From Escherichia coli (lineage in GTDB: Bacteria; Pseudomonadota; Gammaproteobacteria; Enterobacterales; Enterobacteriaceae): DNA of 64,000 nt. The notes under the pieces were generated by a model, which made no database searches, was not told where the DNA came from, and saw only the letters and a list, made by a program, of their open reading frames with translations. The DNA lies in NCBI RefSeq assembly GCF_024223415.1, contig NZ_CP100500.1; one strand, 5' to 3'. This document shows positions 49,292 to 54,749 of this stretch, piece by piece (positions within the stretch are counted from its first letter, which is position 1; each line of letters opens with the position of its first letter). The position numbers and the translations under genes are program-made.

Positions 49292-49321
49292 AATGCCGCC
49301 GATGGCGGCATTGCTTTTTTT
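49292..49321. terminator. bidirectional terminator between ydfZ and ydfI
   Basis: aatgccgcc-gat-ggcggcatt followed by tgcttttttt. Confidence 0.6.
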
Positions 49322-50780
49322 ACTTCACGGAATATTTCGCCACGGTCGCTTTCGCGCCATGCGCTAATAAAGACAAGTACGCTTCCGTCACTTTTGCAGT
49401 AAACAAGCTATTGTCTGGCAAATCATCACCAAAGATTGCCTTAATCGCCAGCAATGACTGGACGCGCGCTTTCCCTTCGGCACTACTTTGTACAGCCTTC
49501 TGAATAACAGGTAACAGTGGGTCACTGATTTCTATCGGATTTCCCTGTTCATCAACACCACCGACATAACGCATCCAACCCGCGACGCCCAGCGCCAGCA
49601 GATCGAACTTGCTGTCATGCGCCAGATGCCAGCGAACAGAATCCAACATCCGCTGTGGCAATTTCTGGCTGCCATCCATCGCAATCTGCCAGGTTCGATG
49701 ACGTAACGCCGGGTTGCTATAGCGTTCAATTAATCGGTTAGCGTAATCTTGCAAATCAACGCCCTGCACTTTCAGCGTCGGCGCTTGTTCCTGCAACATC
49801 AAGCCATACGCCGCATAACGATAATGTTCATCTTCCATACAGTCATTAATGTGCTGATATCCGGCAAGATAACCCAAATACGCCAGGAATGAATGACTGC
49901 CGTTGAGCATGCGCAACTTCATCTCTTCATAAGGCAGCACATCACTAACCAGTTCGGCTCCCGCTTTTTCCCATTCCGGACGTCCGGCAACAAAGTTATC
50001 TTCGATTACCCACTGGCGGAAAGGTTCACAGGCAACGCCCGCAGGATCGCGCACACCGGTAAGTTGTTCGATTTTCGCCAGCGTATCCTCTGTCACTGCG
50101 GGCACAATACGGTCCACCATTGTTGATGGGAAAGTCACGTTATCTTCGATCCATTGTGCCAGTTTTACATCAACGGCTTGCGCGTAGGAAGTGACAACGT
50201 CACGCATAACATGACCGTTTTCTGGCATGTTGTCACATGACATGACGGTAAATGCGGGAAGTCCTGCCGCTTTACGGCGAGCCAGCGCCTCAACAATCAC
50301 CCCTGTTGCTGTTTTCGGCTGGTGGGGATTTTGCACGTCGGCAACGACCATCGGGTGATCGAGCATTAACTGTCCGGTCGCCGGAGAGTGGAAATACCCT
50401 TTTTCGGTGATTGTCAGAGAGACAATCGCGATTTGTGGTTCACACATCGCAGCCAACACGGTTTCTAAGCCATCCATCTGTACGTGCAAGGCTTTTTTAA
50501 CGACGCCAACGACGCGAGCCGTCCACGCATCGGCCGACATTTCCGCAACGGTATAAAGATTATCTTGCTGTTGTAAATCGGCAATTTGCTGTTCGCCACC
50601 GATTAAGTTGACCTCATAATATCCCCAGTCACTGAAATGTTCTGTAGCAAGAATATCGGCATACACGCCCTGATGCGCACGGTGAAATGCACCAAAGCCT
50701 AAATGAACAATCCTTGGGGCCAGGTTATTACGATTATAAACAGGGAGTGTCGCTTTTGCTGATAACAAATTATTTCCCAT
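49320..50780 (-). CDS. ydfI: mannitol-dehydrogenase-family oxidoreductase (486 aa)
   Basis: 486-aa ORF, mannitol/mannonate dehydrogenase family. Confidence 0.9.
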
Positions 50781-50868: not shown

Positions 50869-52152
50869 TTACAGACTTCTGGAAGGTTGCGCAGCTCTTA
50901 CAACACGCGGTTGATCTTCCGCAGCGTCTTCCAGCGCACTTAAATCACGGTCTTTCACTTCTGGCATTTTCAGCGCAGAGATTAAACCAATCACTGAATA
51001 TGCCATGATCATAATGGCGATCGGATACCAGGATTCCGTCATGGTGCAGAAAATACCCGCCAGGATAGGACCAAAACCGGAAGCGATAAGACCACCAATT
51101 TCTTTAGAAATAGCCATCCGGGTAAAACGGTTTTTACAACCGAACATTTCTGCCATGGTAATGTTTTCCAGAGCAAATAATCCCAGCACCGCACAGTTAT
51201 GAATCACAATCAGTGCAACCATAATGGTGCTCGGGGCATAGCTTTTATCTACGATGATAGAAAGCATTGGCCATGCCAGCACAATCGCAGAGGTATTCAT
51301 AATAATATACGGGATCCGGCGACCAATTTTATCGGATAACCAACCAAGGAACGGAATGGTCATAAAGCCGAGAATCGAACTGATCATCAATGCATCTGTT
51401 GGAATTGCTTTGTTAAACAATAACGTCTGTACTAAATAGCCTGCAAGGAAAGTCTGAATTAACCCGGAGTTACCTGCCTGACCAAAACGCAGTCCTGTTG
51501 CCAGCCAGAAGGATTTGCTCTGGAACATGCTACCAGCAGGTGCAGGTTTTGCTGTCGGTTGGTTGCTGTCGTTAACCTTCTCAAAGACCGGGCTTTCTTT
51601 CAGATTCATACGCAACCAGATAGCAAAGACCATCACGACAACGCTCGCCAGGAACGGTATACGCCATCCCCACGCCAGCAGTTCCTCTTTACTGAGAATG
51701 AAGAACATAAAGGCCCAGATTGCCGTTGCGCTCAAGGTTCCGCAGTTAGTTCCCATAGCTACAAATGAGGAGATAATTCCGCGCTTACCTTTTGGCGCAT
51801 ATTCCGCCAGCATCGTACCGGCACCGGAAATTTCCGCACCTGCACCCAACCCCTGAATAATACGCAGCGTCACCAGCAAGATGGGTGCAAAAACACCAAT
51901 CTGTGCATAGGTCGGTAACACACCAATTAAGGTGGTACAGATCCCCATCATGGTGATGGTAATAAAGAGCACTTTTTTACGCCCTATTCTGTCGCCCATT
52001 TTGCCGAAAATAAATGCTCCGACAATACGCGCCACATAACCTGCACCGTAGGTTCCCATTGCCAGAATTAACGCCATTGCCGTTGATGATTCAGGAAAAA
52101 ATATTTCATGAAACACTAACGCTGCGCCGAGCGAATATAACTGGAAATCCAT
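50869..52152 (-). CDS. ydfJ: MFS transporter (ProP-like), N-terminally truncated at the prophage junction (427 aa)
   Basis: 427-aa ORF begins directly in a TM helix and lacks the roughly 30-residue N-terminus seen in ProP-family proteins; prophage DNA starts immediately upstream. Confidence 0.85.
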   Translation of the reverse strand: MDFQLYSLGAALVFHEIFFPESSTAMALILAMGTYGAGYVARIVGAFIFGKMGDRIGRKKVLFITITMMGICTTLIGVLPTYAQIGVFAPILLVTLRIIQGLGAGAEISGAGTMLAEYAPKGKRGIISSFVAMGTNCGTLSATAIWAFMFFILSKEELLAWGWRIPFLASVVVMVFAIWLRMNLKESPVFEKVNDSNQPTAKPAPAGSMFQSKSFWLATGLRFGQAGNSGLIQTFLAGYLVQTLLFNKAIPTDALMISSILGFMTIPFLGWLSDKIGRRIPYIIMNTSAIVLAWPMLSIIVDKSYAPSTIMVALIVIHNCAVLGLFALENITMAEMFGCKNRFTRMAISKEIGGLIASGFGPILAGIFCTMTESWYPIAIMIMAYSVIGLISALKMPEVKDRDLSALEDAAEDQPRVVRAAQPSRSL

Positions 52153-52753
52153 AATTCACAGGTGTTTTTTCCCATCCTGTGGTTTCCTTGGCGTTTTCTA
52201 GGTTTTTTCAGATAGTTGCATTTTTTTAAAAGCATCCTAAGTTCGATCTCAGTGTCTATCTGGGGCCTATTTCTGTCCCATATATGCCCCAAAAAACTCC
52301 CCAACAGATAAGTAGTTTTTTCATGGATTTACGCGTAAAATCAATAACGGCTGGAAATCATTCAATACTCGCACTATCGAAAAATTTACCAGCCAACCGC
52401 AGCACGTTCTTGCATAAGGTGTGTCTGCGGTTTTTCAACTATTCAGATACATCACTCCCATCACATTCATTCCTCCACATCAAAGGCATATAGGCTATAT
52501 CACCTTGATATTTTTCTTCTTCAGATAAAAACTGTTATCTATGTATACTTTTAAACCCAATCCGTGTAGAGTCTCTGCATAAGATAGTTTGCAGTTGCCA
52601 CTTCAGATTGCGCCATAAACCGCCTGATTTTTGCCGCCACCTGTTAGCATTCCTGTATACCTGAAACGACAATGTTTATCTACGAACTTTAAGAACACCC
52701 AAGATAAAATTGTCAACTATATCATATATAACACATTACTAATTCGAGGCTAT

Positions 52754-52867
52754 ATGAACAGCATACTGATAATCACTTCTCTCCTTATCATATTCAGCAT
52801 TTTTAGTCATGCCCTAATAAAATTAGGGATTGGCATATCCAATAACCCAGACAAAACCGATGTATAA
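52754..52867 (+). CDS. hypothetical 37-aa hydrophobic peptide (candidate small membrane protein)
   Basis: ATG 52754 preceded by [41 protein letters not shown]; no homology claim. Confidence 0.25.
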
Positions 52868-52935
52868 GTCAACATATCCTGAATCAGACATACAATATCG
52901 CAATGAAAATCAATAATATTTTAAGGAATATCTTC

Positions 52936-53169
52936 ATGAAATCAAAAGACACCCTAAAGTGGTTCCCTGCGCAGCTTCCTGAAGTAAGAATTATCCTAGG
53001 GGATGCTGTAGTGGAAGTAGCAAAACAGGGAAGACCTATCAATACCAGAACATTGCTTGATTACATTGAAGGAAACATAAAGAAAAAATCATGGCTGGAT
53101 AACAAAGAATTATTACAAACAGCGATATCAGTTCTTAAAGACAACCAAAATTTAAATGGTAAAATGTAA
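52936..53169 (+). CDS. ydfK: prophage cold-shock-associated protein YdfK (77 aa)
   Basis: Start at ATG 52936 (MKSKDTLKWFPAQLPEV…); matches recalled YdfK/YnaE family. Confidence 0.85.
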   Translation: MKSKDTLKWFPAQLPEVRIILGDAVVEVAKQGRPINTRTLLDYIEGNIKKKSWLDNKELLQTAISVLKDNQNLNGKM

Positions 53170-53485
53170 TATAATAAACTTACTTTTTTATCATTTTTCC
53201 ACTTTAACAACATTTTGCTCCACTTTTCCACGACCAAACAACTTGAAATCTGGTTAAAATAACACGCAACACTATTCTTCTTCCTTGAGTCCGCCCGGAA
53301 CTCGAAAAACAAACCGAGTTAAAGCCATTTTTCACAAAATCGATTTTGGGTCTCACCAAAGTTACGGGGTTGCATACGCATTCGTTTATTTTCGAACGTG
53401 TACATACAAATATGCACAAAAATAATCAAAATTATTTTCTGAGATGCATTATGATATGAACACCAATTTCGTATAGAGTCTCACT

Positions 53486-54076
53486 ATGTCTCGAATTTTT
53501 GCTTACTGTCGGATATCAACGCTGGATCAGACCACCGAAAATCAACGCCGGGAAATCGAAAGTGCAGGTTTTAAAATCAAACCTCAGCAAATAATCGAAG
53601 AACACATTAGCGGCTCAGCAGCAACCAGTGAGCGTCCTGGTTTTAACCGGTTGCTTGCTCGCCTGAAATGTGGTGATCAATTGATTGTGACAAAACTGGA
53701 TCGCCTTGGTTGTAATGCAATGGATATCAGGAAAACAGTGGAACAACTGACCGAAACAGGTATCAGAGTGCATTGCTTAGCATTGGGGGGCATTGACCTG
53801 ACCAGTCCAACAGGAAAAATGATGATGCACGTAATTTCAGCAGTCGCTGAATTTGAACGAGACCTTTTACTTGAACGAACTCATTCCGGGATAGTAAGAG
53901 CCCGCGGCGCAGGGAAACGTTTTGGTCGACCACCTGTGTTAAATGAAGAACAGAAACAGGTGGTATTCGAACGAATTAAGTCAGGTGTAAGTATAAGTGC
54001 CATTGCCCGGGAATTCAAAACCTCGCGGCAAACCATTTTAAGAGCCAAAGCAAAACTTCAGACACCTGACATATAA
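53486..54076 (+). CDS. pinQ: serine-recombinase DNA invertase Pin (196 aa)
   Basis: [20 protein letters not shown]… resolvase/invertase catalytic domain plus C-terminal HTH. Confidence 0.95.
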
Positions 54077-54173
54077 AAAATAATCTCGGTGTGAGATGCT
54101 TTACGTCTTCCAAGCCCCCTTCCTTGCCGTAAATGGAAAGATACATCTAATTATAGAATTTATATGTTTTACC

Positions 54174-54749
54174 CTACGGCAGTGCTGGCCATTCAATATC
54201 CTGTGCAGTTGACGTATCAACACGGTTCAGCAACACCCGATACTTTTTCCAGGCTTCCAGCAATGAGGTTTCTTCCTCCGTTGCGATTTCCAGATCTACA
54301 GCATCCTGAAGTGGCGCAATATGCTCACTGGCTACCTGCATCAGGCTGTTTTTTGTTTCTTCCGCCTCCCGGATCCGGAACAGTTTTTCTGCTTCTGCAT
54401 CTTTCACCCAGGCTGTGCCGTTCCACTTCTGAAACTCCCCTTCCGGCGATAACCAGGTAACATTTTCCGGTAACGGACCGAGTTCAGAAATAAATAACGC
54501 GTCCCCTGACGCTACGTCATAAACCGTTTTACCCCGATGGTCTTCATCGAGATGCCACGATGCCTTATCACTGTTGAAAACAGCCACAAAGCCAGCAGGA
54601 ATATCTGGTGGTGCAATATCGGTACTGTTTGCTGGCAGACCTGTATGAGGCGGAATATATGCGTCACCTTCACCAATAAATTCATTAGTTCCGGCCAGCA
54701 GATTATAAATTTTTATGGTCCGTGGTTGTTCACTCATTCTGAATGCCAT
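54174..54749 (-). CDS. tfaQ: tail fibre assembly protein (191 aa)
   Basis: 191-aa Tfa-like ORF; start overlaps stf stop (TAATG). Confidence 0.9.

Follow-up and report, generated by a model that had tools for sequence, protein, structure and literature searches.

Why should a gene labelled as a DNA invertase lie beside tail-fibre genes that seem to offer it nothing to invert? The question is raised by pinQ (pin), a small serine recombinase gene in a stretch of 64,000 nucleotides from Escherichia coli (assembly GCF_024223415.1, contig NZ_CP100500.1; hereafter the window), in which E. coli chromosomal sequence is followed by a Qin-site lambdoid prophage. A first-pass annotation of this DNA had described pin followed by one tail-fibre assembly gene (tfa) and one side tail-fibre gene (stf), both on the minus strand, with no second inverted set, and the open reading frames and their Pfam matches bear this layout out (Table 1). 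It had also taken pin for an invertase of the Pin/Gin/Cin type with no visible cassette, a premise that fails on sequence identity: PinQ is 38% identical to PinE but 77–85% identical to resolvases of Tn3-family transposons and plasmids, and identification as a Gin/Cin/Hin/Pin-type tail-fibre invertase was rejected on these figures. We favour, with a probability of roughly 0.6, the reading that pinQ is a Tn3-family resolvase module captured by a phage, decayed as a recombination system, with its protein retained. The “DNA invertase” label, which stands in thousands of E. coli and several phage genomes, leads one to expect a tail-fibre switch, which is absent here, whereas identity as a resolvase relic would explain the missing cassette and locate PinQ’s own site array.

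Resolvase relatives of pinQ and the res remnant

The window protein combines a Resolvase catalytic domain (PF00239, E=3.6e-36) with a C-terminal helix-turn-helix (HTH_7, PF02796, E=3.8e-11), and it differs from PinQ of strain K-12 at 3 of 196 residues, with two base differences in the 320 bp upstream of the gene. Its close relatives are plasmid and Tn3-family transposon resolvases, homologues in the 77–85% range occurring in 1,763 plasmid records and chromosomally in several genera, among them Erwinia, Shewanella, Photorhabdus and Budvicia. At a Shewanella locus (L033), a 77%-identical gene is divergent from a 1,033-codon open reading frame with a DDE_Tnp_Tn3 domain (E=1e-148), and remnants or distant homologues of tnpA lie upstream at three further loci (L009, L034 and L035: Yersinia pYV, next to arsHRBC; Photorhabdus; and an Oxalobacteraceae genome). 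The pYV context agrees with the published Tn2502, one of the arsenic transposons, with Tn2503, that bear tnpR–tnpA and a res site (PMC3316555). pinQ is orthologous to these resolvase genes that are divergent from a Tn3-family transposase gene; in the window itself, tblastn with the Shewanella transposase found no tnpA, terminal repeats not having been searched for separately. The homology to IncF plasmid copies continues past the pin stop codon, the blastn match ending at query position 1016, which is window position 54115. General-purpose annotation was less specific, NCBIfam giving no family-specific model at cut-off and PHROGs placing pin only in a generic “DNA invertase” family. Judged by sequence relationships, pinQ is best read as a captured Tn3-family resolvase and not a tail-fibre invertase of the Pin/Gin/Cin type.

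Two relatives deserve mention in their own right. A 61%-identical homologue in an Erwinia phage has a good three-box site of its own and an unrelated gene neighbourhood. A natural chimera occurs on the chromosome of E. coli GCA_910593615.1 (locus L044, 3670–4591), in a prophage with dinI, ynaE, pin and tfa: the upstream region through box I is of the phage 2H10 type, the part from mid-box II to about residue 155 is of the IncF-plasmid type with Arg76, and the C-terminus is again of the phage type. This mosaic indicates that plasmid and prophage copies of pin exchange sequence by homologous recombination.

Upstream of the gene, relatives from Enterobacterales to Alphaproteobacteria conserve an array of three boxes, and the window carries a degraded homologue of it (53373–53474), directly upstream of pin, which the first-pass annotation did not mention. 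In the relatives, box I is a 26-bp dyad with the consensus TGTCCGAAACCGACCGGTTTCGTACA; box II, centred ~43 bp from it, spans 32 bp with the consensus TGTCCGAAA-N14-TTTCGGACA; and a TATAAT hexamer follows, then box III with the consensus CGTACACCCATTTCGTAC. In general, a Tn3-type res site has three subsites, of which box III is proximal to the gene and box I distal, with the promoter inside res (PMC12217951), and it is by their conservation and this organization that we interpret the boxes as res subsites, box I being the putative crossover site. The window’s box I agrees with the consensus at 13 of 26 positions (19–25 of 26 in relatives) and has lost its dyad symmetry; agreement is 22/32 for box II (relatives 17–30/32) and 14/18 for box III (relatives 14–17/18). 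A half-site matrix built from eight loci of relatives, alongside which two diverged phage-type lineages were available for footprinting, gives the window’s half-sites −0.9 and 4.0 bits in box I and 2.1 and 1.0 bits in box II, against a mean of 16.2 bits for boxes I and II of the relatives. What stands directly upstream of pin is thus a set of remnants and not an intact three-subsite res. The TATGAT hexamer between boxes II and III aligns with the TATAAT of most relatives and, on the model of Tn3-type res with its internal promoter (PMC12217951), may be the −10 element of the pin promoter. A scan for promoters and terminators returned only weak consensus matches and no terminator. As a separate observation, a locus in Erwinia oleae (L032, 1268–2652) has two divergent resolvase genes with extra GTACGAAA-type dyads between them besides the usual three boxes, and may represent two res–tnpR modules back to back.

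Active-site residues and action in trans

When numbered against a gamma-delta resolvase sequence that agrees with the PDB alignment, PinQ keeps Tyr7, Arg9, Ser11, Gln15, Gln20, Arg50, Asp72 and Arg73, the equivalents of gamma-delta Y6, R8, S10, Q14, Q19, R45, D67 and R68. The catalytic set Y6, R8, S10, R68 and R71 is nonetheless incomplete: the R71 equivalent is Cys76. Arginine occupies position 76 in 110 of 110 non-phage cluster representatives, whereas cysteine is found in all phage-type sequences examined (the window, K-12 PinQ, P0001, P0002, P0004, P0009, P0088, L025 and L003). In Tn3 resolvase, the substitutions R71A and R71K leave no recombination products and slow cleavage ~1000-fold, while site I binding is kept (PMC2794168). 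Other positions have changed as well, the R32 equivalent being Gln35 in the phage type and Arg in 110/110 relatives, and the E56 equivalent (position 61) being Glu in 110/110 relatives, Lys in the window and in two of three phage-type cluster representatives, and Glu in the third. Gamma-delta R2, R32, K54 and E56 make up what we take to be the 2-3' inter-dimer contact required by the accessory-site complex; their equivalents are Arg, Arg, Arg and Glu in 106–110 of the 110 relatives, and Arg3, Gln35, Arg59 and Lys61 in the window, where the contact set is incomplete through Gln35 and Lys61. K-12 PinQ has in addition Gln3 at the R2 position.

Several observations weigh against regarding these changes as the loss of an active recombinase. 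The R71 mutants of Tn3 resolvase are called “not inert” (PMC2794168), so that some activity with Cys76 is possible. The engineered “NM” resolvase, which is independent of accessory sites, has R2A and E56K among its six mutations, so that changes at these positions can be read as decay or as deregulation, and Lys61 and the Gln3 of K-12 could be deregulating, not degenerative. The phage-type recognition helix differs from that of the relatives at two positions, and a shifted DNA specificity of PinQ is possible. There is also published genetic work on K-12 by Kirigo et al. (Nucleic Acids Res 2025; PMC12529663), who report that overproduction of PinQ raises inversion of the e14 P segment from ~30% to 88% and that deletion of pinQ reduces both inversion and resistance to phage T2, and who regard PinQ as an active recombinase. 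In the same study, PinQ-driven inversion blocks T2 adsorption through a chimeric StfE2 protein (PMC12529663). The suggestion in the first-pass annotation that an orphan Pin might act in trans on another element thus has experimental support in the literature for a near-identical protein, and both the orphan status of PinQ and its trans effect were already known. Searches of the literature turned up no description of PinQ or PinR as TnpR-derived, of the res remnant or of the substitution at Cys76, papers beyond the searched set being possible. The text of Kirigo et al. assigns PinQ now to prophage Qin and now to prophage rac, and it lists a liver fluke among PinQ carriers, probably through bacterial contamination of the assembly (PMC12529663).

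An alternative interpretation is that PinQ is a fully competent invertase acting in trans, whose substrate is the 26-bp pix pair of the e14 P segment and whose role is a StfE/StfP chimera switch serving anti-phage defence. Apart from the published in vivo claim, made for a protein three residues from that of the window (PMC12529663), this interpretation gains from Lys61 and the K-12 Gln3, which lie where mutation helps to free Tn3 resolvase from accessory and directly repeated sites, from the 26-bp length of the family’s box I, which is that of an invertase crossover site, and from HMMER comparison, in which PinQ matches Gin at E=2e-30 and gamma-delta resolvase at the weaker E=3e-22. We nevertheless consider it unlikely, since PinQ has a cysteine in place of the catalytic arginine whose loss abolishes recombination by Tn3 resolvase and shares so little identity with PinE, and since the pix half-sites, read from K-12, score −7.5 to −17 bits on the PinQ-family matrix, at the 5th–30th percentile of window 12-mers and far from the mean of cognate half-sites. 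In addition, the P segment is locked in one orientation in a pinE single mutant with pinQ and pinR intact, and term searches of the text found neither an in vitro recombination assay nor a catalytic mutant (PMC12529663). Given the locked mutant, the lack of such an assay or mutant in the searched text and the background scores of pix, it is not established that PinQ itself catalyses the inversion of P; Cys76 makes this doubtful, yet possible under overexpression. The catalytic substitution, the dissimilarity of pix to cognate sites and the sufficiency of a pinE deletion to lock the segment together place a concrete and testable doubt on the 2025 claim of PinQ-catalysed inversion as a phage defence.

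A further possibility, less likely than not, is that PinQ and PinR are natural “pseudo-recombinases”: transposon resolvases, exapted by lambdoid phages, that have lost the catalytic arginine and their own crossover site and whose sole remaining action would be to bind DNA or to pair with other recombinases. PinQ could then tilt the inversion that PinE catalyses at the e14 P segment, or act as a repressor of host genes, and the recombinase-activated phage defence would not be catalysed by PinQ itself. The repression of host genes by PinR claimed in a preprint (10.1101/2022.03.29.486199) would fit such a binding-only role.

Constraint on the gene and the search for a local invertible segment

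The ratio of non-synonymous to synonymous substitution rates (dN/dS) is 0.04–0.05 among transposon-type genes, 0.15 between the window gene and the IncF copy, and 0.36 between two phage sub-lineages. By synonymous divergence (dS), the phage type (0.56 from the IncF copy) nests inside the diversity of the transposon type (1.4–2.5), which makes arginine at position 76 ancestral and cysteine derived. Across four outgroups, unique amino-acid changes number 16–28 on the phage branch and 0–5 on the IncF branch, with P from 0.012 down to 1.5e-8. The two phage sub-lineages, which differ at ~15% of residues, both keep an intact 196-codon frame, Cys76, the pin–tfa layout, the remaining catalytic residues and the helix-turn-helix, and the tally calculated from the rates is ~32 non-synonymous to 25 synonymous changes between them, compared with ~43 to 13 under neutrality. 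The intact frame and the retention of Cys76 and of the layout in both sub-lineages argue that some constraint remains; the phage lineage evolves faster but still under purifying selection, of a weaker kind.

These rates bear on a second alternative, that pin has no function and merely hitch-hikes, a piece of transposon drifting neutrally in the accessory region of the phage and kept only by linkage. The decay of the crossover box, the loss of the catalytic arginine and of inter-dimer contact residues, the roughly seven-fold rise in dN/dS and the strong acceleration of amino-acid change on the phage branch are all of the kind that drift would produce, but we regard this explanation as improbable because dN/dS remains well below 1 and because frame, Cys76, catalytic residues and helix-turn-helix have survived intact in both sub-lineages. 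It is also at odds with the spread of the gene, which occurs in sequenced phages and whose upstream region, standing in for the module, occurs in 2,800 complete E. coli genomes out of 5,426 (about half), and with the deletion phenotypes published for pinQ and pinR (PMC12529663; preprint 10.1101/2022.03.29.486199).

Searches for a local invertible segment were uniformly null. Between the non-coding DNA flanking pin and the tfa/stf region, the best inverted 26-mer pair matches at 17/26, a score that 96/100 and 63/100 shuffles also reach. The gix/hix/pix core AAACCNNGGTTT, with up to two mismatches, has no match downstream of position 52865, a range that takes in pin, tfa, stf and all that follows them; its matches over the whole window number 31 for 33.5 expected. 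The reading by eye in the first-pass annotation, which had found no gix- or hix-like crossover pair, is thereby confirmed computationally. A generic inverted-repeat search of 52000–58500 gave, as its longest results, repeats of 17–28 nt with 70–86% complementarity and no candidate pair of crossover sites, and a whole-window scan for a second copy of the PinQ-family dyads gave 9 hits for 12.2 expected, none near prophage genes. Synthetic queries were run against the 5,426 genomes, in a test that detects inverted segments of up to ~3 kb: a query with tfa–stf inverted relative to pin matched in none of them, and one with ydfK–pin inverted between its flanks likewise in none, while the collinear ynfT–ydfK–pin–tfa–stf arrangement of 3 kb was covered to at least 80% in 1,885. 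The site searches and the inverted-arrangement queries together argue that a local invertible segment is absent, and pin is an orphan here, as had been proposed, with no orientation polymorphism in the genome set.

Two words in the window had been flagged as lacking an inverted partner, and both were rejected as being at chance or background level. The AACTCG-N10-CGAGTT palindrome upstream of pin is present, although it occupies 53299–53320 (22 bp) and not 53298..53319, and it lies outside the res remnant. The 316-bp pin upstream region contains seven nested perfect inverted repeats with 6-bp arms, for 2.4 expected (P=0.056), each of the palindrome’s arms stays at background level on the half-site matrix, and one arm reads AGTTCG in phage 2H10. 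The TGTAAACC word inside stf, placed near 55620 in the first-pass annotation, is found at 55643–55650 and is indeed without a partner, an isolated half-site-like word. A different, perfect palindrome, CAAAATCGATTTTG, stands at 53335–53348, between the AACTCG-N10-CGAGTT palindrome and box I; in phage 2H10, paired changes in its arms (C to A, G to T) lengthen it, and this pairing, seen in the two lineages that could be compared, hints at a protein-binding site.

That a local segment exists with crossover sites too diverged to recognize has no specific support beyond the general association of “Pin”-labelled genes with tail-fibre genes, and we consider it very improbable, given the chance-level results of the 26-mer, core, dyad and inverted-repeat searches, the single tfa and stf on one strand, the convergence of pin with tfa where in e14 the 5' end of pinE adjoins its segment, and the lack of either inverted arrangement in any genome.

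Returning to pinQ as a captured and decayed resolvase, we propose that an ancestor of Rac/Qin-type phages took up a fragment of ~0.75 kb (~53373–54115) comprising the res site and tnpR of a Tn3-family transposon or plasmid. It now lies in accessory DNA immediately past tfa, where its transcription opposes that of the late operon and runs with that of ydfK. After capture, box I, the crossover site, would have lost its dyad symmetry, the R71-equivalent arginine would have become Cys76, and the R32 and E56 equivalents Gln35 and Lys61, while weaker purifying selection would have preserved the frame, the remaining catalytic residues and the helix-turn-helix that binds DNA. We infer that PinQ still binds DNA, its likeliest targets being the residual boxes II and III, which overlap its own putative promoter and would make it an autoregulator, and that it performs little or no strand exchange on local substrates; any recombination under its influence would take place at another location in the genome. 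Its published action on the e14 P segment would in that case stem from catalysis that is residual and weak, or deregulated, when PinQ is overexpressed, or else from a modulating effect on PinE. A resolvase-type gene needs one site per replicon, so that neither an inverted partner nor an alternative fibre cassette is to be expected of a single-res system, and none exists. On this account, pinQ would be an example of a phage that captured a transposon module and kept the protein after the recombination system had decayed.

The locus and its relation to known systems

Table 1. Genes and putative sites around pinQ, in window coordinates.
Feature	Position	Strand	Remarks
ydfI	49320–50780	−	
ydfJ	50869–52152	−	
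ynfT	52754–52867	+	small open reading frame at the prophage end; known by its translation, and so named in K-12 and the near-identical strain ST866
ydfK	52936–53169	+	cold-shock protein gene, same strand as pin; matches PHROG 2718
res box I remnant	53373–53398		CATACGCATTCGTTTATTTTCGAACG; putative crossover site
res box II remnant	53413–53444		TGCACAAAAATAATCAAAATTATTTTCTGAGA
TATGAT hexamer	53450–53455	+	putative −10 of the pin promoter
res box III remnant	53457–53474		TGAACACCAATTTCGTAT
pinQ (pin)	53486–54076	+	small serine recombinase, 196 aa; Resolvase N-terminal domain and HTH_7
Cys76 codon (TGT)	53711–53713	+	at the position of catalytic Arg (gamma-delta/Tn3 R71)
3' end of the putative captured fragment	54077–54115	+	39 bp past the pin stop codon, homologous to IncF plasmid copies
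tfa	54174–54749	−	single tail-fibre assembly gene, convergent with pin; Pfam Caudo_TAP
stf	54749–57253	−	single side tail-fibre gene, 834 aa; Pfam tail-fibre domains
lom	57312–57911	−	
J	57982–61395	−	

ydfJ abuts the end of the prophage, and its annotation in ST866 is that of an N-terminally truncated gene, as would fit integration of the prophage into ydfJ. Within stf, a unit of ~44 residues is repeated three times in tandem (55950–56330), corresponding to three Phage_fiber_2 repeats in Pfam. A G+C-rich hairpin, AAAGCCCGCCTGAACCGGCGGGCTGT, at 57261–57286 between stf and lom resembles a terminator stem and is the strongest self-complementary 26-mer within 52900–57300. The 3' end of tfa (54184–54284) is a common mosaic joint in other genomes, where pin modules with different tfa genes lose the match near 54284 and tfa–stf modules without pin begin to match near 54184, and these limits suggest that the last ~35 codons of tfa serve as a recombination linker. 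A prophage inserted at another chromosomal position, next to ompT in strain MY1-8 (locus L001, 3920–6638), also carries the ynfT–ydfK–pin–tfa–stf module, and there a partial tfa and an S-adenosylmethionine-dependent methyltransferase gene lie upstream of ynfT. The order J–lom–stf–tfa / pin–ydfK–dinI–int recurs in genomes of 45–49 kb that were submitted as phages (2H10, mEp460, Tritos, Turner, HannyBb and Kati among them), and the relatives on viral contigs are nearly all near-identical copies in the same layout, which added no new context.

The closest known counterparts are PinQ and PinR of the K-12 cryptic prophages Qin and Rac. Gene and locus are the same, down to the flanking ydfI, ydfJ, ynfT, ydfK, pinQ, tfaQ and stfQ and the shared Cys76; in K-12 Qin, however, stfQ is truncated and followed by nohA, whereas the window prophage has a full-length stf, lom and J. 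With TnpR of Tn2502/Tn2503-type transposons and the stand-alone copies on IncF, IncR and other plasmids, which we regard as the source of pinQ, the gene shares 77–85% identity, length, the Resolvase and HTH_7 domains, a homologous three-box upstream region and ~39 bp of homologous sequence downstream. It departs from them in the missing tnpA, the decayed box I, the Cys76/Gln35/Lys61 that replace Arg/Arg/Glu, a rate of evolution several times higher, and a tail-fibre neighbourhood.

The likeness to the Fis-dependent invertases Gin, Cin, Hin and PinE consists in membership of the small serine recombinases, the HTH_7 domain, the name, the tail-fibre neighbourhood and a 26-bp box I of the size of gix, hix and pix. 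In the Hin and Gin systems, the 5' portion of the invertase gene carries a recombinational enhancer to which Fis binds. PinQ differs from the group in its 38% identity to PinE, in a weak Gin match comparable to that with gamma-delta resolvase, and in having no inverted pair of sites, no alternative Sv/U cassettes, no orientation polymorphism and no catalytic arginine; in e14, stfP and tfaP on the plus strand face tfaE and stfE on the minus strand and the 5' end of pinE adjoins the P segment, whereas pin in the window is convergent with tfa. A further parallel is SGI1, in which a Tn3-type resolvase gene persists although its own res is disrupted by the insertion of In104, the protein being intact and active once res is restored (PMC12217951). 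Both are cases of a resolvase gene kept in a mobile element with a non-functional res, with the difference that in pinQ the site and the active site have both changed.

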